Assembly: GCA_041653495.1 (NCBI GenBank) | Contig: JBAZFF010000001.1 | Location: 4,987 to 68,986 of the forward strand | From: Minisyncoccota bacterium | GTDB taxonomy: Bacteria; Patescibacteriota; Minisyncoccia; Minisyncoccales; RBG-13-42-11 | DNA length: 64,000 bases | Direction: 5' to 3' | Shown here: in pieces, positions 7,118 through 19,724 of the stretch | Numbering within the stretch: the first letter of the stretch is position 1 | Layout of the letters: each line of letters begins with the position of its first letter | The notes under the pieces: model-generated | The model's database searches: none | The model's input: only the letters and a program-made list of their open reading frames with translations | Told to the model about the DNA's origin: nothing | Translations under genes and position numbers: made by a program

Positions 7118-10093
7118 TTAAATCTGACTTCTTGTCGATATTTGATACTTTTTCTTTCTCCTATCAAAAGCCCTCTCTCCACCTTCCAGGATATCGCATA
7201 CCTGTTCAATAATTCCATTCTCAAACTGGTCAACGGGCATATTTGGTAATTGTCTTGCCTGATCCTCAAGTGAACCACAATCATATTCAAGACGAGGCGT
7301 GCGCTTGCCATTATAATTTGAAACGATGATTTGCTCGGCGTCTGTATTGACGACAAGATTAGGATTGTGAGTCACTATTATAATTTGTCGGTATTGTTTC
7401 CTCGATCGGAAATAATCGATTAAATCTTTATAAACCGACAGATTATCCAGATTTTCTTCTGGTTGGTCTATAATAAGCGGCCTGTAATCTCCTTTATCTA
7501 TCTCCAAATAAAGCATTAAAAGAATAATACCTTTTTGACCAGGAGATAGGAGGTACAAATCTGTGTCATCGAATTTTAAAGACGAAATAATCTTAAAATT
7601 CGTTGGATCGAAGAGCCAATTAAAGAAATCGTCGATACTATAATTTTCCCGTAGCTGTTCTTCAATAGAAATAATACCACCTTCAAAAGCGGTAAAACTC
7701 TCTAAAATTTTATTAATCTGTGCCTCTAACATTGCATCAGCAAAATCACCTCTCATGCATTCATCCCAGAAATAATTTAGTGTTGTTTTTAGCGTGTTGA
7801 TTTCTCTAAAATTTCCACGTCGCGTTCTGTCAATAATATCTAAACCACTTCGATAATGAGAATCGAGCTGGTAATTGATCTGTGCTTCAAATACAAGTTT
7901 TTTATCTGTGTCAGTTCCAGCAGAAAGTATATCTTGTAATGGTTTGTACAACTGCTCGATCTGCGTTTTTTCCTCTTTTAATAATTTAAAATAAGAACAG
8001 TAAGTAGTCATTCTATCTTTCTCTAAACGTTCTTTCTCTGGAGTAGATTCTGTTTTTATTTTAGTTATTTCATTCTCTAAGGCTTTAATTGATGCCTCGA
8101 CAGATAGGGCCGTTTTCTTTTGTTGTTGATACTTAAGTTTGGTTGTCTCAAAGGCTCTCGTTTGTTTCTGTTTTTCATCAATCCCATTATTTAAAGACTG
8201 CAGATTATCAAAGGGTAAGTCGATGGCTTGGATTGCAAGCAATTGAGCAACATCTTTCTTGGCGCCTTCTTTTAGGGTTTTTAGTTTTCCGCTGATTTCA
8301 TTTTTCTTTTGATCAAGTAAAGTTTTAATACCAGACTCATCAATATCAACCCTAAAGACTGAGGAGTTAGTAATGCCTACGTCTTGTAAAAGAGTTCCTG
8401 TTTCCTCTCGAAATTCTTCAATATGAGTTTTAAAAACTTTTACTTTTGTTTCAATTTCAATAATTTTACTAATTTGTGCCTGTAGTTCAATTATTTTGTT
8501 CTCAAATTTCTTTTTTATTTCAGATAAAGCCGCGAGCTCTTCTTGTCCCTTCTTATCTTCGGCTGGAAGTTCGGGTAAACTTTTATTAAGTCTTTCTAAT
8601 TCTTTTTTCTTTTCATCAAAGGTTTTTTCTTTGTCGGGCAGCGTTTTAAGAATTGTGGACAAAGAGCCTATTTTTTTGTTTATACCATTAATCTTCTTTA
8701 ATACTTGGTCTTTTTCATATTGAAAAGAACTTAATATTCGAGATTTTAGTTCATCAAAATCGGAAGCTCCAATTCGTTCTGTTTCATCAAGTGCCTGAAA
8801 AATAACATTTTCTATTTGTCTTTGCAGCTTCTCACTATTCTTGTGTGAGCATAAGTCTTCCACTGCACCCTGCGGTAAATACTGAACCAATTCTTGATCC
8901 TTAGTAAGGTTACCGACTTCAAATTCGGTCTTCGAATCGTCGGCCCAATCGATTGTTATCTTAGTATTAGAAATACTACTTTTATGCTTGGCTGCTTTTT
9001 TCAAAAAAGCATCTTCGTTATCGTCTTTACTACCAGCACCATAAGCAATTGCTTCGACTAAGGCCGACTTTCCAGAACCCCTACCACCAATAACCGCAAT
9101 CAAATCTCGGTTCAATTCTAATTTAAAGTTATCAGGAAACCATCCGTTAGATGAAGGTATTGATATCTGTTTAATCACTTTATGGTCTGGCTTGAAATTG
9201 GGAGGCGTGACCCCGATAAAGACGCGCGCATCTGGTTCGTTCAGTACTTGCTTCAAACCAGCAAATGTCGGATCGGCTTTTATCCAAAGTAAAGTTTCGC
9301 CGATACGATCGATTTTGTGAGCGTCTGACGAATGGAGGATAAGACTATTTAATTTATTAGTGATAAGGTCCTGTTTGTTTTCAAGAATTTTTGCTGGATC
9401 GTCTAAGCTTGTTAAGGAAAAATTAGCAGTATTAATAATCGTCCGCTTCTCGGCCGCAGCTTGATTCCACCTTGATTGGTCCCATTCGGAATAGCCAATA
9501 GCAGTTACAAACCTTCCTTTAAAACAATTCTTCTTCAATAATTCTTCTATATCCTCTCTTTTATAGGTGATATTTTCGAAACCAACTTCCAGGTCCGATT
9601 TGCTTTGAACAGAGTTATCACTTGGCGCAGCTGCTTTAATTTGCTGGCCAAGCTCCTGAAGGGATCGAACTGTTGGCGTTTGTCGCCACTCGGTCTTATC
9701 CTGAATCTTATATCCAGTAGATAAACAATTTAACAATTGATCTTTAATATCTTGAACTGAAACTGATGGATCAAAAAGGATGTGAAAATTATGACGCTTA
9801 GCACTATCTGCTGTACCACTAAAAGTATTCAGTCGGAATTCGATATTCGGAACAATAAGCTCTATATTCGGTATCTCGTTTTTTCTTGTTAATAAATGTT
9901 CGTATCCTTCACAAAAAAGATAATCGGTTATACCAATTACCTTTATTTCTTTGGGAAGCGAAGCAAGCTTAGTAATGAATGCATCCCAAGACGTTTTGTT
10001 ATCTCCGCCATACTCCTGAATTATCGATTTTGGGGTGTGAATGTGTAGGTCCCATTTACGCCACTCAGAACCCCTTGGGTATTTACTATTCAT
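7118..10093 (-). CDS. PHP-domain phosphoesterase fused to a Rad50/SbcC-like coiled-coil ABC ATPase; defence-associated and uncharacterised
   Basis: N-terminal PHP motifs WDLHIHTPKS (HxH), HNFHILFD and LHSSDAHKID (DxH). Walker A AVIGGRGSGKSALVEAI near residue 335, about 350 aa of charged heptad-rich coiled coil, then C-terminal signature-like LSPGQKG, Walker B LIIDQPEENLD and H-loop VTHN. Starts 4 nt after the res stop. Confidence 0.6.
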   Translation of the reverse strand: MNSKYPRGSEWRKWDLHIHTPKSIIQEYGGDNKTSWDAFITKLASLPKEIKVIGITDYLFCEGYEHLLTRKNEIPNIELIVPNIEFRLNTFSGTADSAKRHNFHILFDPSVSVQDIKDQLLNCLSTGYKIQDKTEWRQTPTVRSLQELGQQIKAAAPSDNSVQSKSDLEVGFENITYKREDIEELLKKNCFKGRFVTAIGYSEWDQSRWNQAAAEKRTIINTANFSLTSLDDPAKILENKQDLITNKLNSLILHSSDAHKIDRIGETLLWIKADPTFAGLKQVLNEPDARVFIGVTPPNFKPDHKVIKQISIPSSNGWFPDNFKLELNRDLIAVIGGRGSGKSALVEAIAYGAGSKDDNEDAFLKKAAKHKSSISNTKITIDWADDSKTEFEVGNLTKDQELVQYLPQGAVEDLCSHKNSEKLQRQIENVIFQALDETERIGASDFDELKSRILSSFQYEKDQVLKKINGINKKIGSLSTILKTLPDKEKTFDEKKKELERLNKSLPELPAEDKKGQEELAALSEIKKKFENKIIELQAQISKIIEIETKVKVFKTHIEEFREETGTLLQDVGITNSSVFRVDIDESGIKTLLDQKKNEISGKLKTLKEGAKKDVAQLLAIQAIDLPFDNLQSLNNGIDEKQKQTRAFETTKLKYQQQKKTALSVEASIKALENEITKIKTESTPEKERLEKDRMTTYCSYFKLLKEEKTQIEQLYKPLQDILSAGTDTDKKLVFEAQINYQLDSHYRSGLDIIDRTRRGNFREINTLKTTLNYFWDECMRGDFADAMLEAQINKILESFTAFEGGIISIEEQLRENYSIDDFFNWLFDPTNFKIISSLKFDDTDLYLLSPGQKGIILLMLYLEIDKGDYRPLIIDQPEENLDNLSVYKDLIDYFRSRKQYRQIIIVTHNPNLVVNTDAEQIIVSNYNGKRTPRLEYDCGSLEDQARQLPNMPVDQFENGIIEQVCDILEGGERAFDRRKKKYQISTRSQI

Positions 10094-10097
10094 ATTT

Positions 10098-12329
10098 TTA
10101 TAAATTCAAAAACTCCCAATCCTTCAGATTGTTTGGATCGTAAGAGTACTTATCTTTACTATTAACGCGCCAGCTGTTTTTATCCTTAACCACAATGCCG
10201 CCAAATAATTTCTTCCCAGTTTTGTTTAACTTTTTAATGTAAGCTTGTAAACCTTCGGCGCGATCCTTTGCAGTTTGAGCATAAATGCCACCCTTAGTAT
10301 CAAATAAACCAATGCGACCATCTTTCATCTTCACGATAAAATCGACATAAAATGGTTTGTCAGCTCCCGCCTCTGTGTATGGCACAGCAAAATAAGTCGC
10401 ATCACTCTTGCCGTTCTTAAACCACCACTCAATTTGTTTAGCTTTTTCCAAGTACTCAATAAACGAAACTTCAACATCGCTGTCTTCTTCGAACAATGAG
10501 AGAGTGTTGTTGCCCTTTGTCTTCGCGTAATAAGGCTGAATAATTGATTTTTTATAGTCCTTCTTCACAAAAGTCAGATTGTAATTAATCGTGCCAGGAA
10601 CATTCCATAGCTCCTCGTTCTCGATTAATTCGTACTTGCCTCTGCCAACAACGTCCTGGTAAAGCTCTTTTGCTTTATTAATGACATCTGTGACGATTTG
10701 TCTGTTTTCTTCGGCCAACACGATGGCTTGAATCTTCGGCCAGTCATCAACACCCATCTTAAATGCCTTATCAAAAAAACGATAAATAGAATCATTGATA
10801 CGCTTAATCGATCGTAATTCAGGAGCAAACGGGGTCAAATTTTCACGAGCAAAATAATCAAAAGCGTTCTGTAATTCCACTTCATTCTTCGGTATGTCAA
10901 GCGTTCCTTTTTTCTCAACGCTTTTTGTTTCTTTATCAACATCGACAATGCGTCCGCTGGCGATAATTTTAGTATCGACAATGCTGTGTTTAAGAGAAAT
11001 GTGGTCCTTTAGTTTAAGCTCGTCGGCCGCTTTAAAAAAGATAGGCACAAAATCAGACGACAAACGAGTTTCCTCACGAAAACGTTTAGAATGATATGAT
11101 GACAAATTAATATTTTTATAATTATCACGGCGCTTGCCTTCAAAAACTGTTATGTATTCTTTGGCAATATCCTCAGCAATACCAATATCGCTTAAGCTTG
11201 TAAAAACATAACCAAGATTTAGCTCAGGAGTCTTGTAGTGATGATGCTCTGGCATACGCATGATACGGCCTATAGTTTGGATTGAGAATACAACACTCTT
11301 CCATTCACGGAACAAAACTAATATCGCAGCGCGAGGGCAATCCCAGCCGACTGCAATGGCTTGCTTAAAGATCATCACCTCAACCTCGTTCTCATCTTTT
11401 TCAATATTCTCCAGGTTTATTTTGTTATCTTTCTCAGAGAGATAAATTGCAAGTTTTCCATTCTCGGTAGTGATGCCATACTTGCCCAATAATTGAATTA
11501 CGGAATCCTTTTTATCTATTCCAGCGTGGGAGTCAGGTATCTGTATTAGCATTAACGGATTAACATTTGATCCCTCGGCTGTGTAAAGTTTTGTCAACTC
11601 AACTCGTTTCTTGAGCCCCGCTTCGACAACGATTTCGTCTGCCGTTTTATCGGCTAACTTCTTATCCAAATGAAAACTTTCAAACCCAGGGTTAATAACG
11701 ATTTCCTTCTTAATCATCCCTTCGTCCTTAACTTCCTTAAGCTCAACTTCAACACCACGGAAAACACCCTTGAACTGTGGAGTAGCGGAAACCTCAATGG
11801 TTATTTTGGGACCAATCTCTTCGATGAGTTCTTTTGATTTTTCAGTTTCAGCGTTGCGGTGACTCTCATCGATTACCAGGATAATTGTTCTGCCTTCATC
11901 TTTCGTTCTGGTAATTACATTGGAAAGGTTATTGTCGCGTTCGTTAGCGCGAACATAAATATTTTCTTTTTTGTTTATACTGGCCCAATTTAAAAACAAA
12001 ATTTCGTTCTCTGCGATTTTTCTATCTTCCAGATCTTCATAATAAGAACACTTCAAGCCAACACCAAACTGGTCATAATATTTTTTTAAACTATTACGGC
12101 TTTGATCATGTAGTTTGTTTACCGCTATCCAAACAAAAGAAAATTTACGTCCATCAATTCTTGAATCAATAAGGCGCTTTAAAAACTCAGCCATCATTAA
12201 AGTCTTGCCTGATCCTGTGGGTGCTTTAAAAATACAGATTTTATCGCCTTCTGCTTCCAATAAATCGTTAACCTCTTGTTTGAGTTTTACGATTGCTTTT
12301 TCTTGATAATTTTTAAATTCAATCCACAT
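10098..12329 (-). CDS. res: Type III restriction enzyme Res subunit (SF2 helicase plus PD-(D/E)xK nuclease)
   Basis: KAPTGSGKT (motif I), VIDESHR (motif II), and a C-terminal nuclease-like PFYVDFIV…LFDTKGG. Sits 3 nt downstream of mod. Confidence 0.8.
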   Translation of the reverse strand: MWIEFKNYQEKAIVKLKQEVNDLLEAEGDKICIFKAPTGSGKTLMMAEFLKRLIDSRIDGRKFSFVWIAVNKLHDQSRNSLKKYYDQFGVGLKCSYYEDLEDRKIAENEILFLNWASINKKENIYVRANERDNNLSNVITRTKDEGRTIILVIDESHRNAETEKSKELIEEIGPKITIEVSATPQFKGVFRGVEVELKEVKDEGMIKKEIVINPGFESFHLDKKLADKTADEIVVEAGLKKRVELTKLYTAEGSNVNPLMLIQIPDSHAGIDKKDSVIQLLGKYGITTENGKLAIYLSEKDNKINLENIEKDENEVEVMIFKQAIAVGWDCPRAAILVLFREWKSVVFSIQTIGRIMRMPEHHHYKTPELNLGYVFTSLSDIGIAEDIAKEYITVFEGKRRDNYKNINLSSYHSKRFREETRLSSDFVPIFFKAADELKLKDHISLKHSIVDTKIIASGRIVDVDKETKSVEKKGTLDIPKNEVELQNAFDYFARENLTPFAPELRSIKRINDSIYRFFDKAFKMGVDDWPKIQAIVLAEENRQIVTDVINKAKELYQDVVGRGKYELIENEELWNVPGTINYNLTFVKKDYKKSIIQPYYAKTKGNNTLSLFEEDSDVEVSFIEYLEKAKQIEWWFKNGKSDATYFAVPYTEAGADKPFYVDFIVKMKDGRIGLFDTKGGIYAQTAKDRAEGLQAYIKKLNKTGKKLFGGIVVKDKNSWRVNSKDKYSYDPNNLKDWEFLNL

Positions 12330-12332
12330 ATT

Positions 12333-14057
12333 TTATTTAAAAATCTCACGATATACTTTCAAAATAACTTCGGGTATAGCACAAAGCGTGACTCGACTGC
12401 GCACATCCATAAACTGCTTCTCGTGCGGATCATCGCCCAAAGAAAACACATAGACATTAAAATGGCCCTTGATTTTCTTTATTGCTTTTTTGAAATCATC
12501 GATAGCTTCTTCATAAAATACGATACCGAGATATTTATCGCTATTCTTGAAAATCTTAAAATCGCTCTCGTCCTGAATTAACTCAAAAGCACTCTCTTTA
12601 ATACAGAGCATCTCAGTCGATTCATTAACCAGCTTGCGCTTATTGCGGTCCGTCGGTTCGGCTTCTACAAAATCGCAGGTGTAATACTTTAAGTTTCCTC
12701 CCAAGCCCTTAACCTTTTCTCCTTTCGTGCCCTTATATCCTTCAATGGCTTTATTCAATCGCGGATAACAAATATCTGAAGCAATCTTTAATCCACTACC
12801 ATTATTATCTTCATTGTTTGTACACAGGATGAATCGTCTCTTTCCACCATCTTCTTTATTTAATTCAAGTAATGCATGTCCAGTAGTCCCTGAGCCCGCA
12901 AAAAAATCCAATATAGTTATATCGTTGGGCTTATTCGTTATCTGAATAAGATATTTAATTAAATTTACAGGCTTCGAATAATTAAAATCTATTCCCATTT
13001 CGCTCAACAAGTCAGCGCCACGTCTATTTATAAATTCATCAAGGAAATTTCTTGGTCTTTTTCCTTCTTCTTCTCTATCGCTAAGATAAGTTTTTGTATA
13101 AATATTCCATACAGATTTTTTTCCTTTATCGTCTAAAAGAGGTGAATTTTTTGCTTTCTTAAAAACAACCCGATCATTTTTAAAGTTTTCCAGAAATGTC
13201 TTTTCGGTCCATCGATAAACCTTTCCTTTCGGTGGTCGCGCCTTAGAGCCATCAGGACATATGATAAAATAGTTCTGATTCGGCCGAACATCCAAAGCGG
13301 CCTGATATAAAGATATCTCTCTATATTTTCCTCTCTTGTCTTCTCTATTAAAAAGCTTTACCCAGTCGTCGGTAACAATGTCTTTGAACTTACCTAATTG
13401 TTGGAGGTCTTTTGTATAGCACAAGAGATAATCAACTGATGGAGAGAATTGGGTTCCTTTATTACTGGCCGTTTTAGCTACCCTGGATATAACTTCCACA
13501 AGATTAAGCTCGCCAAATATCTCGTCACACATCATCTTGAGCTGCGCTAATTCATCATTACCAATACTTATAAACATAACACCGTCTGGCTTAAGAAGAT
13601 TTCTTGCAAGCTTTAACCTTTTTTCCATGAAATTAAGCCATTTACTGTGACGAAACGGATCTTCTTTGTCGACTCTTTTATCATTATAAATAAAATCATC
13701 ATTCCCAGTGTTGTACGGAGGATCGATGTAAATAAAATCAACCGCTTCATAATTGGTAAAATTTAAAACTGCAAGTGAATGGTAATTATCTCCCTCAATT
13801 AATAAATTTACGGGTTTATTTTGGTCATCATTTATTTCTTTACTTTTAGCCTCTTTTAAAACTGGGAATGGTCTACCCACCATTTCATTAGGGAACATTT
13901 CATTGGGAGTACGAGCATCAGGATTGATAAGAATATCGATCTTTTCTTCTGGGAGATCGCGATGCCAAACAAGCCCGTATTTTGTTTCCTTAATACGGCG
14001 CAACTCTTTAATGAGTTCCTCTTTGGACCAATTGTCGTAATTAATTTTTCTTGCCAT
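12333..14057 (-). CDS. mod: Type III R-M Mod subunit (beta-class N6-adenine DNA methyltransferase)
   Basis: IYIDPPYNTG (motif IV) precedes FFAGSGTTGHA (motif I), the beta-class order typical of Type III Mod. Confidence 0.85.
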   Translation of the reverse strand: MARKINYDNWSKEELIKELRRIKETKYGLVWHRDLPEEKIDILINPDARTPNEMFPNEMVGRPFPVLKEAKSKEINDDQNKPVNLLIEGDNYHSLAVLNFTNYEAVDFIYIDPPYNTGNDDFIYNDKRVDKEDPFRHSKWLNFMEKRLKLARNLLKPDGVMFISIGNDELAQLKMMCDEIFGELNLVEVISRVAKTASNKGTQFSPSVDYLLCYTKDLQQLGKFKDIVTDDWVKLFNREDKRGKYREISLYQAALDVRPNQNYFIICPDGSKARPPKGKVYRWTEKTFLENFKNDRVVFKKAKNSPLLDDKGKKSVWNIYTKTYLSDREEEGKRPRNFLDEFINRRGADLLSEMGIDFNYSKPVNLIKYLIQITNKPNDITILDFFAGSGTTGHALLELNKEDGGKRRFILCTNNEDNNGSGLKIASDICYPRLNKAIEGYKGTKGEKVKGLGGNLKYYTCDFVEAEPTDRNKRKLVNESTEMLCIKESAFELIQDESDFKIFKNSDKYLGIVFYEEAIDDFKKAIKKIKGHFNVYVFSLGDDPHEKQFMDVRSRVTLCAIPEVILKVYREIFK

Positions 14058-14276
14058 ATCTTTTATTATCTTTAAGATTGCTCGTCTTATCTAAAAAAGC
14101 ATTAAGGTCAGATTCTTTGATCCGCCAAACCCCAATCTTCGAATCTCTGAACTTACCGAGTTCAATCTTTATATAAATTTAACATTTCCAAGAAAGAAAA
14201 CAACCTTCTCGGGAAAGCCAATTTTGATGGCGGGAAAGTCGACCTATTTACGTTTAAATATTGAGGACTTTTCGTC

Positions 14277-16194: not shown

Positions 16195-17250
16195 TTATCT
16201 CATAATATAAGCAGAAGAGGGACCCTTTCCAATCTGGGTGATTATGCCAATTTTTTTAAGCTGGCTTAGTTTTAACTGAACCGTCCTTTTGGGAGAATTA
16301 AGGATATCTACGGCATCTTTCACTGTAATCCTGCCAATCTGATCCAAAAAATCCAGCAATTTTAGTTGATCCTTGTCAAGGTATATTTTTGATTCAATGC
16401 CCTTGTTAATGTTTTTGAAAGACAAAGAAACGACTTGCGCCTTAACGCCGTCGATCTCTTCCTTGAATCCCCTGACGAAATATTCAAGCCAAGGCGTGAA
16501 GTCCTTTTTTCTTTCTTGATAGTTCTTGCCTGTGTTTATTGCCGCATAGTATTTCCCTCTGTCTTTGTTGTAATAGTCTTCCAGGGCAAACAATCTTCGG
16601 AAATTATATCCTCTCTGGTAGAGCACGAGCGTTGCTATAGCCCTGGCCGTCCTGCCGTTACCGTCCTGGAAAGGATGGATGGCCGCTACTTCCTGGTGAA
16701 CTATTCCGGCAGCAATGACAGGATTGATATTTTTGGCCTTACTCTCCTTTAGCCATTTTATTAGATCCTGGCAAAGACGAGGAACATCTTTAGCATCTGG
16801 ACCGGTATAAACGATTTCATCTGACAAACCGATCCTTTGGCGCACAACATATATCAAACCCCTGCGATAATGACCAGACTGATGTTCTGGTAAAGTCTTG
16901 TTAGTAACAAGCTCATGAATTTTCAACAAAACCCTTTCGGTAATCGGCTGTTCATCTTTGACGACTCTCTCTATGTATTTTAAAGCTTTAAGATAATTTT
17001 CAACTTCATAGATGTCGCGCGCTGGAGCATCTATTTTTTTACGGGCGACTATTGCTTCCACCTGTTTATAATCAAGGGCATTACCTTCTATTCCAGTAGA
17101 GCTGTGACTCATCCTGATTAACGCCTGGCGCCTCAATTTTATTTCATTTTTGGGCAAAAGCTTGGCACGATCGATAACCGCTCTTGATTCAACAATGGCG
17201 GTAAGCATCTCAACAATTTTACTCGTTATTTTATAGGAAGGATTAAACAT
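16195..17250 (-). CDS. Fic-family protein (AMPylase-type) with N-terminal inhibitory motif and C-terminal wHTH
   Basis: Fic motif IHPFQDGNGRTAR. The N-terminal STGIEGN matches the (S/T)xxxE(G/N) autoinhibitory helix of class II Fic. Confidence 0.85.
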   Translation of the reverse strand: MFNPSYKITSKIVEMLTAIVESRAVIDRAKLLPKNEIKLRRQALIRMSHSSTGIEGNALDYKQVEAIVARKKIDAPARDIYEVENYLKALKYIERVVKDEQPITERVLLKIHELVTNKTLPEHQSGHYRRGLIYVVRQRIGLSDEIVYTGPDAKDVPRLCQDLIKWLKESKAKNINPVIAAGIVHQEVAAIHPFQDGNGRTARAIATLVLYQRGYNFRRLFALEDYYNKDRGKYYAAINTGKNYQERKKDFTPWLEYFVRGFKEEIDGVKAQVVSLSFKNINKGIESKIYLDKDQLKLLDFLDQIGRITVKDAVDILNSPKRTVQLKLSQLKKIGIITQIGKGPSSAYIMR

Positions 17251-17280
17251 ATTCTATTTGTATTATAACCAATTAAAGAA

Positions 17281-17302
17281 AATCGCGCAATAATCGCGCA
17301 AA
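17281..17302 (+). promoter_or_regulatory. Tandem direct repeat AATCGCGCAA-t-AATCGCGCAA over the -35 region of the Fic promoter (candidate operator)
   Basis: Two exact 10-mers 1 nt apart, about 15-35 nt upstream of a TATAAT -10 on the minus strand at ~17262-17267. Confidence 0.35.
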
Positions 17303-17382
17303 ACTTTTAAAATAAGGTAAAAATAAGATTTAATTTCTCCTTGACAAATTATACGACGAAAATGATGCTTCGAGTCTTCGTT

Positions 17383-17402
17383 GGTAGATTGTGAGACAAA
17401 AT
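17383..17402 (+). repeat. Array motif copy R4 (GGTAGATTGTGAGACAAAAT)
   Basis: Followed by a GC-rich hairpin and TCTTT (17403-17432). Confidence 0.7.
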
Positions 17403-17449
17403 AAAAAGGGCCGTCCGTAGGCGACCCTCTTTAAACTAATCGTGTTTTA

Positions 17450-18106
17450 TCAAGCCGGCTGAAGAGAGCGTTTCTGGGGCTTAAAAAGCTCGTCCGAGAA
17501 AGACTTGTCGTTGTAAAAGACGTTCTTCCCGTAGCTTAGTAATTCATTCCCCTTCCAGGTCATAAAGAAGAACCACTGGGCGATATCTTTCCCATATTTG
17601 ATAGAGCCGCATAAGGTGAAAATCGGAACCTTCAGGGACTTATCATCCATGGTGTTGGCGCGGTAGAGGCTAAATTCCAGATTCTTGGTAATCTTTTCGT
17701 TGAAAACATCGGTGAGATTCGAAAAGACCTGGTCCGTGCGTTCGTCGCCGAATATCTTCTCGGGGCCGAGCGTTGACCCCTGCGCCAGAAACTTTGCCCT
17801 TTCCCTGATGAATTTCTTTGTAAAGAAGTTCTCTTCGAAAGAGCGGGCCCTAGTCACGAATCCGGGATTGAGAAGCACCATATCCTGGTATTTAGTTTCT
17901 TTGAGATTGATTACCCCGACGCGGCACAAATCATCCGGTTCGATGCCTAAGTCGCAGTCTATCGTGATCTCATCCATGAAACGCAGAAGATTGAGTGTTA
18001 CACGGTTGTGCAGGCCGATAGTCAGATGATCATCGTCGTTTATTAAGTCAACGACCGGGAAATCTCCCTTTCTTTCTGTTGATAAGACAACTATTCCTTT
18101 ATTCAA
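17450..18106 (-). CDS. Hypothetical protein (cassette cargo)
   Basis: 218-aa ORF with an AGGAGG RBS and a perfect 16-bp palindrome just upstream. Confidence 0.5.
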   Translation of the reverse strand: MNKGIVVLSTERKGDFPVVDLINDDDHLTIGLHNRVTLNLLRFMDEITIDCDLGIEPDDLCRVGVINLKETKYQDMVLLNPGFVTRARSFEENFFTKKFIRERAKFLAQGSTLGPEKIFGDERTDQVFSNLTDVFNEKITKNLEFSLYRANTMDDKSLKVPIFTLCGSIKYGKDIAQWFFFMTWKGNELLSYGKNVFYNDKSFSDELFKPQKRSLQPA

Positions 18107-18127
18107 AGATCTAACCTCCTAATTATT

Positions 18128-18143
18128 TCCCATTGCAATGGGA
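18128..18143 (+). promoter_or_regulatory. Perfect 16-bp palindrome TCCCATTGCAATGGGA immediately upstream of the RBS of 17450..18106
   Basis: Dyad-symmetric sequence read directly from the window; typical of a dimeric-repressor operator. Confidence 0.4.
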
Positions 18144-18192
18144 TTCTAAACTATAAAATAATTCAATCTCAAAGTCAATTCAGCTCCTCCTA

Positions 18193-18212
18193 GGTAGATT
18201 GTACGACTAGAA
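18193..18212 (+). repeat. Array motif copy R5 (degenerate: GGTAGATTGTACGACTAGAA)
   Basis: GGTAGATTGT is conserved and the rest has diverged. Confidence 0.5.
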
Positions 18213-18342
18213 TGACACGTAATGGCACACAACACACATTATTCGACATGTGTGTTTCAGAATATATTTCCCGATGTATAGACGAATACCCACGGCGTGA
18301 ATATTCCTTGGGTACTTAGTGCTTATTCTCAGCTAATAGAAT

Positions 18343-19098
18343 TTAAGAGAAATATGTCTCTATTTCCCTAGTTAAACGAGAAGAAAAATCTTTTGATATA
18401 GTTTGATGGCTTACTGGCAAAAATATTTTTAATTCTCTTTCTAAATTTCCTACTTCTGAAAGAGCATTCAATAATTTTTCCTTTAAACCAATCTCACTTC
18501 TAGGAATATAGCTCACTAGGCTTGGATTCTTTGAAATAAAATACAAATCAAAGAAATCTCTAGGTTTTTTTCTATAAAGTAAGGCTTCAATCTTCTCTTT
18601 TACTAAGATTCTCTCTGTTAAAAAAGTGACAACATATGAATCTGTAAATTCACTTTGTACAAGACTAGTGTTCGCTTCAACCTCACTAGGATTACGAAAT
18701 GAAATTTCTAATCTTATTTCCGAATCGAAATCTAACATCTTTAATTTAATAACAGTTAAATATCCTCCCGTAGTTTCCCCCTGTGTCCCATCATTAACTT
18801 TTTTCTCAGTTTGTATCCCCTCTTCTTCCATATTTCCCAAAGTTTCGTCTATTAATCTATTAATCTCTGAGTAATCTGGTCCATGATCACCAATCGCGGA
18901 AAAATCAAGATCTTCTGAAAATCGAGGACTATGGAAGACAATCCTTAGAGCAGTACCTCCTTTAAAGAGGAACTTTTCCGAACCCTTTTTCTTATAAAAA
19001 TAAGATAAAAAAAGATGTTGACAGTATTCCCTGGCTATGTTCTCTTCTATTGTCTGATATCTCGTGGCAAGTTGGCTTATGAAATGACGTGAAATCAT
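18343..19098 (-). CDS. AbiEii-family nucleotidyltransferase toxin (type IV TA / abortive infection)
   Basis: FKGGTALRIVFHSPRFSEDLDF matches the DUF1814/AbiEii GG…R.SeDlD motif. Confidence 0.7.
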   Translation of the reverse strand: MISRHFISQLATRYQTIEENIAREYCQHLFLSYFYKKKGSEKFLFKGGTALRIVFHSPRFSEDLDFSAIGDHGPDYSEINRLIDETLGNMEEEGIQTEKKVNDGTQGETTGGYLTVIKLKMLDFDSEIRLEISFRNPSEVEANTSLVQSEFTDSYVVTFLTERILVKEKIEALLYRKKPRDFFDLYFISKNPSLVSYIPRSEIGLKEKLLNALSEVGNLERELKIFLPVSHQTISKDFSSRLTREIETYFS

Positions 19099-19724
19099 AT
19101 TGGTTTATAAATTATTTTTATTAAATTAATGAATGATTTATTCTTCCTAAGATTATTTTTAAAATATTTAACATAATATCCTAATTTGTTGTCATCTATT
19201 TTACTCAAATCTACTCTATCGTTTAAATCTTTTTTCCGTAGAGACAAAAGATAAATATAATCCAACAAAGCCTTTTCTCTTTCTGCCATTAAAACATTAA
19301 CGCCCCTCATTTTTTGTGGTTGATACCCAAAAAAGAGACTCTTTTTTATTTTTATATAGTCAAAAAATGATCTTTGTACGGAGAAACTTTTTGTTTGTTT
19401 TGTAGTCGCAGAAATTATACTATAAACATTTTCTGGAATTATCCCATAAAAAGAGAGGGCTGTTTCAAATGATATATAAGATGGCTTGTACAATTTATTA
19501 GCAATCTCAAATTTGTTAGGAAGATTATGTGCAAAAATATAGAGACCTTTTTTTATTTTCAAAAAATAAGAATTTTGTTTTTTTGAGTTACGCGAAAGGA
19601 ACGCTCTCGCTGTAGAGGATTTTATCTCTAAAAATTTAGAAAATTCAGATACAGTAAAAATCCTGAGCCCAGTATTATTCAACTTTCTCTCGACTAAGCT
19701 CAAGCTTAATCTTTCATTAGTCAT
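19095..19724 (-). CDS. AbiEi-family antitoxin / transcriptional regulator
   Basis: Located directly upstream of the AbiEii gene with a 4-nt overlap; SFETALSFYGIIPE matches the AbiEi_4 signature. Confidence 0.55.
   Translation of the reverse strand: MTNERLSLSLVERKLNNTGLRIFTVSEFSKFLEIKSSTARAFLSRNSKKQNSYFLKIKKGLYIFAHNLPNKFEIANKLYKPSYISFETALSFYGIIPENVYSIISATTKQTKSFSVQRSFFDYIKIKKSLFFGYQPQKMRGVNVLMAEREKALLDYIYLLSLRKKDLNDRVDLSKIDDNKLGYYVKYFKNNLRKNKSFINLIKIIYKPI

Follow-up and report, generated by a model that had tools for sequence, protein, structure and literature searches.

The 64,000-nucleotide (nt) stretch of a Minisyncoccota bacterium genome analysed here (contig JBAZFF010000001.1 of assembly GCA_041653495.1, positions 4,987 to 68,986; hereafter the window) encodes a 991-amino-acid (aa) protein on its minus strand at positions 7118-10093. 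Profile matches identify this protein as a full-length member of the TrlF family, and its gene, trlF, is the last of a compact mod-res-trlF transcription unit shared with a Type III restriction-modification (R-M) system. By analogy with the sibling family Ppl, we consider it somewhat probable that TrlF is an autonomous, Ppl-like, ATP-gated DNA-end nuclease that forms, together with the co-transcribed Type III R-M system, a defence cassette of two layers. In such a scheme TrlF would engage DNA ends through its ATPase/coiled-coil module and its PHP domain would degrade foreign DNA. Within the cassette it would form a second defence layer, co-expressed with restriction and perhaps profiting from the DNA ends that restriction creates, and would not be a subunit of the restriction enzyme.

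The trlF open reading frame (ORF) begins with an ATG, and translation bore out both its length and every motif quoted in an earlier note on this DNA, which had left out the strand: WDLHIHTPKS, HNFHILFD, LHSSDAHKID, AVIGGRGSGKSALVEAI, LSPGQKG, LIIDQPEENLD and VTHN are all present. A plus-strand reading of 7118-10093 was ruled out, as it is interrupted by stops throughout. Upstream on the same strand lie res (10098-12329, 743 aa) and mod (12333-14057, 574 aa). The mod stop and the res ATG are separated by 3 nt and the res stop and the trlF ATG by 4 nt, and these coordinates confirm the earlier description of a third gene closely following mod and res. A terminator-like hairpin with a T-run (6989-7007, minus strand) is positioned 3′ of trlF, ahead of a MgsA/RarA-like gene, and no comparable signal was found between mod, res and trlF. 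At the other end, a promoter-like -35/-10 pair with a weak consensus match (14065-14093, minus strand) sits just upstream of the mod ATG, within a mod leader of ~85 nt that is conserved in the related locus L001 described below; only its position is supportive, and promoter-like sites across the region showed no excess over shuffled expectation.

The earlier note had not recognised the architecture of this protein as that of a described family, and on this point it was mistaken. Residues 7-984 align with positions 1-944 of the 944-position NCBIfam model NF045780, 'TrlF family AAA-like ATPase', at 578.9 bits (cutoff 350), the TrlF family label is already carried by hundreds of plasmid copies in RefSeq, and the sibling Ppl has been tested experimentally. 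NCBIfam matches to sibling families were sub-threshold, namely 167 bits for Spaf_1101 (cutoff 475) and 115.5 bits for Ppl (NF042955, cutoff 1000), and the Rad50 model gave 29 bits (cutoff 700). The PADLOC Ppl model matches TrlF at 2.5e-27, mostly over the C-terminal half, and a distant TrlF protein from locus L046 aligned to positions 1-878 of the 882 in the Ppl model. The family is extensive: we found at least 1,775 representatives (50% identity clusters, E<=1e-30), nearly all of ~950-1050 aa and aligning end to end, and a word-indexed search returned more than 2,996 clusters of relatives at 90% identity. Copies with 46-83% identity occur in Paceibacterota, Nomurabacteria, WOR-3, Omnitrophota, Ignavibacteria, Zixibacteria, Rhizobiales and Hodarchaeales. 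TrlF relatives are also present on 623 plasmid records, 426 of them conjugative, and full-length relatives on ~25 prophage or viral contigs. Exact-sequence look-ups of the window TrlF and of P0001 returned no record. In the literature that we searched, the phrase 'TrlF family' was not found, nor was any paper that assigns TrlF a function or describes its recurrent embedding in R-M operons. The name itself derives from the temperature restriction locus trlR-trlF-trlG of Photorhabdus laumondii, where TrlF is annotated as a histidinol phosphatase (PMC7554251).

In TrlF an N-terminal phosphoesterase of PHP fold is joined to an ABC ATPase of the Rad50/SMC type, and a coiled coil interrupts the ATPase head. 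This architecture, proposed in the earlier note from motifs, is upheld by an AlphaFold model built with 43 homologues (predicted local distance difference test 86, predicted template modelling score 0.67), by conserved ligands and by invariant ABC motifs. The model comprises an α/β domain (residues ~8-300) and an ABC head assembled from residues ~306-445 and ~731-985, with the coiled coil between the head lobes. On the minus strand, residues 1-305 (9179-10093) correspond to the metal-dependent phosphoesterase/nuclease domain of PHP fold, with its HxH, E85, H104 and DxH, and residues 306-445 (8759-9178) to the N-terminal ABC head lobe, which carries Walker A GGRGSGKS with its lysine K342 and the Q-loop residue Q408 and matches Pfam SMC_N and AAA_23 as well as SMC/Rad50 heads. 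Residues 446-730 (7904-8758) form an antiparallel coiled-coil insertion with model helices at 446-571 and 586-724, and residues 731-991 plus the stop (7118-7903) form the C-terminal ABC head lobe, which contains LSPGQKG, Walker B IIDQPE, the D-loop and the H-loop THN, matches Pfam AAA_21, AriA and Rad50, and is closed by a conserved ILEGGxxAF tail. The Walker A, Q-loop, signature, Walker B, D-loop and H-loop motifs are invariant across 43 TrlF relatives. Conservation is lowest in the coiled coil (0.54), which at ~285 aa in the model is shorter than the ~350 aa first estimated. No cysteine pair that could make a CxxC zinc hook is found in residues 446-730 (the cysteines of TrlF are at 61, 123, 190, 415, 699, 779, 939 and 966), and there is no hinge domain.

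Pfam recognises only the ATPase in TrlF (SMC_N, AAA_23, AAA_21); its PHP models gave no match to the isolated N-terminal domain even at E<=10, and a profile of 84 N-terminal domains searched against PDB sequences gave only a marginal match to PsfC (E 0.45). The PHP assignment was therefore made through structure and a profile bridge. The best structural matches of the domain include RNase AM and PsfC. In hhalign it matches the N-terminus of a phage TrlF member (94.8%, E 5e-8), and that phage protein, used as the bridge, matches the PHP-superfamily CehA/McbA model. Across 84 homologues of 23-80% identity, the residues proposed as metal ligands (D15, H17, H19, D57, E85, H104, D257 and H259) are either invariant or conserved to at least 90%. 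In 6 of 89 homologues the HxH motif itself departs from this pattern: its first histidine is replaced by glutamine, as WD[LF]QVHT in L031, L063, L068, L077 and L078 and within an otherwise degenerate motif (WDLQACT) in L019. These variants may be altered-metal or inactivated forms; one of them, L078, is R-M-linked.

Mod and Res make up a Type III R-M system that is complete and includes a nuclease of its own. Mod is a beta-class Type III methyltransferase, with DPPY ahead of FxGxG, and matches Pfam N6_N4_Mtase (4.6e-38), PADLOC MTase_III (2.2e-81) and, in the PDB, the Mod subunits of Helicobacter pylori (6k0w, 6e-46) and EcoP15I (4zcf, 1.6e-33). Res matches Pfam ResIII (2.2e-21) and PADLOC REase_III (6.6e-21) and has the superfamily 2 (SF2) helicase motifs APTGSGKT and DESH. 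It is divergent, with no match among PDB sequences, EcoP15I Res included, and is shorter than EcoP15I Res (743 versus ~970 aa). None of the profile libraries searched flagged a nuclease domain in it. A C-terminal PD-(D/E)xK motif (VDF...DTK) is nevertheless kept in Res homologues at 23-40% identity, as VDF..DTK, PDY..EVK or PDF..EAK, and because Res carries this conserved motif the R-M system is self-sufficient, with no missing nuclease for TrlF to supply. Canonical Type III enzymes are Mod2Res1 or Mod2Res2 assemblies, and TrlF does not behave as a third subunit of such an enzyme, since it mostly occurs without Mod or Res.

The cassette has moved horizontally, recently and as one piece between genomes of the Candidate Phyla Radiation (CPR). 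This follows from a blastn comparison of the window with L001, a Paceibacterota metagenome-assembled contig carrying the same three genes. The two share a segment of ~7.1 kb in unrelated context (7015-14142, minus strand), the terminator-like hairpin lying just outside it, with 95% nucleotide identity over 7015-12911 and 80% over 13510-14142. At the protein level 987 of 991 TrlF residues and 729 of 743 Res residues are identical. By comparison, a housekeeping-like gene that the two genomes have in common is found on one side of the cassette in the window and on the other in L001, with only 38-78% protein identity; therefore, the near-identical cassette, the unrelated flanks and the diverged shared gene together point to recent transfer of the unit. 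The GC content is also distinct, at 36-39% for the cassette against 44-47% for most of the window. In Mod the ends are conserved and the central target-recognition region (12776-13515, residues ~180-430; L001:2818-3492) is 18-36% identical, which, judging from the alignment, looks like a specificity swap during or after transfer. A search of the cassette ends revealed neither an integrase or tRNA gene nor terminal repeats.

Two small ORFs were noted at the edges of the shared segment. In L001 an intact 69-aa ORF with an excisionase/MerR-type helix-turn-helix (HTH) (L001:2078-2287) overlaps the mod start by 17 nt and is possibly a controller-like regulator. The window keeps only the last ~85 nt of this ORF (14058-14142), and because only this 3′ remnant is left the upstream recombination breakpoint is placed inside the HTH gene. 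A 104-aa ORF with a TTG start (window 7042-7356, minus strand; L001:9032-9346) overlaps the 3′ end of trlF in another frame and is most likely not a true gene, its occurrence in both genomes following from the high nucleotide identity.

To see how widely TrlF is linked to R-M, we surveyed the neighbourhoods of 110 non-redundant TrlF loci from metagenomes, genomes, plasmids and viral contigs. An R-M gene lies within 4.5 kb of TrlF in 24 of these loci (22%), and the remaining 86 (~78%) have no detectable R-M gene within that distance. The partners include Type I systems (12 loci), Type III (7), Type ISP (1) and Type IIG (1), plus C5 methyltransferases. For example, the order mod-res-trlF recurs in L046 and L065 with Mod, Res and TrlF proteins that share only 30-35% identity with those of the window, and L078 has the order trlF-mod-res. 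TrlF is also found inside Type I operons, as hsdM-x-trlF-hsdS...hsdR in L027 and as hsdM-hsdS-trlF-x-hsdR in L059. Similarly, it abuts, at 0-2 nt, a single-chain Type ISP enzyme in L070 (3567-10820) and an Eco57I/TaqI_C-type IIG enzyme in L085 (209-6024). The R-M-linked copies are scattered over 12 of 29 TrlF clusters (45% identity), and for this reason the linkage must have arisen repeatedly. With growing distance from TrlF, R-M matches thin out from 0.90 to 0.07 per 10 kb; since the genes used as R-M queries were themselves taken from beside TrlF, this control is biased and is supportive only. In an unbiased Pfam census of 136 neighbouring ORFs, R-M families made up ~10%, alongside integrases, resolvases, HipA, RhuM and reverse transcriptases, and no constant TrlF partner emerged. 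The linkage of TrlF to R-M is thus recurrent and non-random, and it is not obligate.

The relatives closest to the window protein illustrate this point. Copies linked to Type III, copies linked to Type I and solitary ones all fall within its own cluster at >=45% identity. Four relatives at 57-74% identity lack an adjacent Mod/Res pair and sit beside integrases, a diversity-generating retroelement, or a methyltransferase-like gene with an AAA_16 protein. Two relatives at ~75% lie directly behind Type I hsdM-S-R operons, one of them 11 nt after hsdR and with a PDDEXK gene 2 nt downstream, and two further ~75% relatives are solitary, one adjoining a serine recombinase and the other with an AbiEii gene nearby. 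The earlier note had proposed a defence nuclease coupled to Type III restriction. The idea of a defence nuclease fits these data, and coupling was overstated, given that Res has its own nuclease and that R-M genes occur near only ~22% of the loci; as a rule for Type III in particular it fails, with relatives of 57-76% identity found alone, beside recombinases or behind Type I systems. A random distribution relative to defence loci, which that note had named as an argument against its proposal, is not what the survey found, as the neighbourhoods are defence-island-like. In fact, on plasmids trlF stands by itself amid Type I R-M, toxin-antitoxin, NACHT and Abi genes and a Gabija-like ATPase/UvrD pair, and in Yersinia phage vB_YenM_42.18 (OM046624.1) a TrlF-family member (L092:1754-4372, 465 bits) occupies a P2-like gpA-gpQ hotspot. 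This phage gene was deposited as 'chromosome partition protein Smc', an annotation that is probably wrong in view of its TrlF-family sequence; its N-terminus matches PHP-superfamily CehA/McbA. Non-R-M genes can also follow TrlF tightly, including a PDDEXK_1 gene 2 nt after it (L093:9979-10731), a DUF2779 gene (L005:10029-11516), and a methyltransferase-like gene with a 1222-aa AAA_16 protein (L004:9988-15061). These may be alternative multi-gene TrlF systems.

Of the readings considered, layered defence through co-expression is the best supported, and on the present evidence we lean toward it. Judged by analogy, TrlF itself is most likely an autonomous, nucleotide-gated, end-dependent nuclease. 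The Ppl-like mechanism is proposed because the sibling Ppl is an anti-phage, end-sensing exonuclease, and autonomy because Res keeps its PD-(D/E)xK motif, because 86 of 110 loci are without R-M, and because TrlF's own cluster is mixed in context. Several points weigh against this reading. In our literature search we came across no experimental demonstration of phage defence or DNA cleavage by any member of the TrlF family. In the only genetic study, that of the Photorhabdus trl locus, the temperature phenotype was mapped to TrlG and not to TrlF (PMC7554251), and TrlF is for that reason without an assigned function. The biochemistry of Ppl is carried to TrlF by analogy only, because the Ppl score is 115 bits against a cutoff of 1000. 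As for DNA as the substrate, activity on RNA and on small phosphoesters is also known for PHP domains, and RNase AM and PsfC are among the best structural matches. Moreover, an R-M gene is on the same strand within 150 nt of TrlF in 14 of 110 loci (13%), hinting at more than passive co-location, and trlF is inserted between mod and res in L018 (mod-trlF-res, 1116-9729) and L044 (444-8485).

These last observations favour mechanistic coupling, which we regard as possible but doubtful. Here TrlF would be a portable post-restriction end-processor that loads on ends like SbcCD/Mre11-Rad50 or RecBCD and degrades the fragments. Double-strand breaks made by ATP-dependent enzymes (Type I, ISP, III) are few in number, and after such degradation restricted phage DNA could no longer be repaired or recombined; the cassette would thus bring its own 'RecBCD substitute', useful in reduced CPR genomes. 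Besides the abutment and the insertions between mod and res and inside hsd operons, this idea draws on the presence of R-M genes near 24 of 110 loci, on partners that are mainly translocating enzymes (Type I 12, Type III 7, ISP 1), on the spread of the linkage over 12 of 29 clusters, on the ~10% share of R-M families in the unbiased census, on the report that Ppl needs 3′-OH ends made by other nucleases, and on the joint transfer of the three genes. However, most TrlF copies are solitary, with R-M adjacency in only 1 of 21 viral copies, and one subclade pairs with different R-M types, so that there is no sign of partner-specific co-evolution. The embedding of unrelated defence genes in R-M operons is moreover a general phenomenon (DarTG in Type I, PMC12255303; Payne et al. 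preprint), the distance-decay control is biased by the choice of queries, and functional coupling of TrlF to restriction was not found described in the literature searched. Extended to the whole family, the same idea yields a speculative proposal that we judge rather unlikely, in which TrlF proteins would travel from one ATP-dependent restriction system to another as a 'finish-the-job' module. As SbcCD-like PHP nucleases of a single chain that load on DNA ends, they would have joined Type I, ISP and III operons repeatedly and independently, even between mod and res, and would destroy the few large fragments in the manner of a RecBCD-type substitute. The layered-defence reading must also be set against a guard or back-up model as in PrrC or PARIS, where the R-M complex would keep TrlF latent or be monitored by it and an anti-restriction protein would trigger abortive nucleic-acid degradation. 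PrrC is silenced by its host Type I locus and RloC is activated by DNA breaks (PMC3458546, PMC2610378, PMC3874168), the embedded positions of TrlF mimic those of prrC, and AriA of PARIS, the sensor of the anti-restriction protein Ocr, is the best PDB sequence match to the C-terminal head of TrlF. We nonetheless consider this model improbable: the effector of TrlF is a PHP domain and not a HEPN/anticodon-nuclease or Toprim, its mostly solitary occurrence and four R-M partner types would call for several silencing interfaces, and no sequence pointer to an R-M-binding module was found in TrlF. A housekeeping role in repair, with TrlF a single-chain SbcCD/Mre11-Rad50 analogue that processes hairpins or double-strand breaks and lies near R-M by chance, is very unlikely. 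Its ATPase head and coiled coil do resemble Rad50, SbcC and RecN, and PHP domains are proofreading or repair nucleases in PolX, Pol III and EndoQ, but the distribution of the family is patchy and transfer-driven, with 46-83% identical copies across unrelated phyla, on 623 plasmids (426 conjugative), in phage hotspots and beside integrases and recombinases; the zinc hook is absent, and the match to the Rad50 model, at 29 bits, falls far short of the cutoff of 700. Least credible of all, and already disfavoured, is the notion that Res is a bare helicase and that the PHP domain of TrlF supplies Type III cleavage. The short Res (743 versus ~970 aa), in which no library flags a nuclease domain, would suit it, but the C-terminal PD...(D/E)xK is conserved in Res homologues at 23-40% identity, the TrlF-linked Res of L044 has a recognised endonuclease domain (PF19778), and TrlF mostly occurs without any Res. 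The candidate 'Res lacks a nuclease and TrlF supplies it' was rejected on finding the conserved PD-(D/E)xK.

Further genes of the window deserve mention. A Fic/DOC gene (16195-17250) and an AbiEii toxin gene (18343-19098) lie 2-6 kb from the cassette, and a 209-aa ORF (19095-19724), probably AbiEi, overlaps the AbiEii gene upstream. The stretch 16195-19724 has a GC content of 32-39% and resembles a small defence-island neighbourhood. Downstream of the cassette is a co-directional run comprising the MgsA/RarA-like AAA+ gene (5829-6971), a SET-domain gene (5450-5839) and CYTH/HD/CYTH genes (3009-5125); a Nomurabacteria TrlF locus (L002) likewise has SET, HD and 2′-5′ RNA ligase genes nearby.

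What the analysis adds is contextual: the window offers a clean natural example of TrlF within a complete Type III R-M transcription unit that was recently transferred whole, and elsewhere in the family TrlF has again and again been hard-wired to R-M systems, of Types I, ISP, III and IIG. A vague 'AAA-like ATPase' label can thereby be replaced by a testable hypothesis of layered or synergistic defence, in which restriction is followed by end-dependent degradation, and the compact three-gene cassette is a candidate for heterologous testing. By analogy with Ppl, TrlF genes labelled 'ABC transporter ATPase' or 'chromosome partition protein Smc' should probably be read as putative Ppl-like defence nucleases. 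If true, a finish-the-job role could matter most in reduced genomes such as those of CPR bacteria.

Among known systems, Photorhabdus TrlF is alike in belonging to the same curated hidden Markov model (HMM) family, in its PHP ('histidinol phosphatase') plus ATPase architecture and in its size of ~950-1050 aa. Its partners are TrlR, a 79-aa regulator, and TrlG (AlbA_2 plus HATPase_c_4), whereas the window has neither and has Type III Mod and Res instead; the neighbours of trlF here are Mod, Res, the MgsA-like gene and a 117-aa ORF without such domains. The TrlR/TrlG partnership is therefore a feature of the Photorhabdus locus and not of the HMM-defined family. Ppl (~880 aa) likewise joins an N-terminal PHP nuclease to an ABC-type NTPase, is homologous over its full length at the family level and occurs in mobile defence contexts. 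It is a tested single-gene anti-phage system that protects E. coli against T7 and Bas63 (PMC11482910), and according to a review it is a nucleoside triphosphate-inhibited 3′-5′ exonuclease of single-stranded DNA that senses and needs 3′-OH ends (PMC12904381); the main text of Rousset et al. 2022 makes no mention of it. By description Ppl is a stand-alone gene, whereas the window TrlF is co-transcribed with Type III R-M, and the two are sibling families rather than orthologues. With Rad50/SbcC, TrlF shares the ABC head with a long antiparallel coiled coil. Those proteins, however, work with a separate calcineurin-like nuclease (Mre11/SbcD), have a CxxC zinc hook and are housekeeping, whereas TrlF has its PHP domain fused in cis, lacks the hook and is mobile and patchily distributed; no Mre11/SbcD-like gene is present among its neighbours in the window. 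AriA (PARIS) is the top PDB sequence match of TrlF, and LmuB (Lamassu), PtuA (Septu) and OLD are structural matches, all of the same broad ABC clade. The effectors of PARIS, Gabija GajA/OLD, Lamassu and Septu are Toprim, Cap4, HNH or others, usually separate or C-terminal, and none has a PHP domain; TrlF, for its part, is not the ABC ATPase-Toprim nuclease fusion that defines OLD/GajA.

The closest parallels in genomic behaviour come from nucleases and toxins carried within R-M loci. The ABC ATPase-nuclease PrrC is invariably found within a Type I R-M locus that keeps it silent, and RloC is a Rad50-like coiled-coil ABC ATPase-nuclease (PMC3458546, PMC2610378, PMC3874168). Like these fusions, TrlF behaves as a 'restriction-linked ORF', in its case in 13-22% of loci; linkage is obligate for PrrC and facultative for TrlF. 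The effector of PrrC and RloC is a C-terminal HEPN-type anticodon nuclease, whereas that of TrlF is an N-terminal PHP domain whose substrate is likely to be DNA ends and not tRNA. Indeed, no HEPN match was found in TrlF, the C-terminus of which is the second ABC lobe and a short conserved tail. PMC12255303 describes a 79-aa regulator followed by a pair of genes, 'RNA-binding protein + AAA-like ATPase', sometimes embedded between hsdS and hsdR; these may be TrlR/TrlG/TrlF, and TrlF was not found named among embedded systems in the accessible literature. The positions of TrlF in L018, L044, L027 and L059 are those of prrC and darTG in known embedded systems. As with DarTG2 between hsdS and hsdR and with other genes recognised through 'guilt-by-embedding', TrlF is an unrelated module placed inside, or at the end of, a co-regulated R-M unit.

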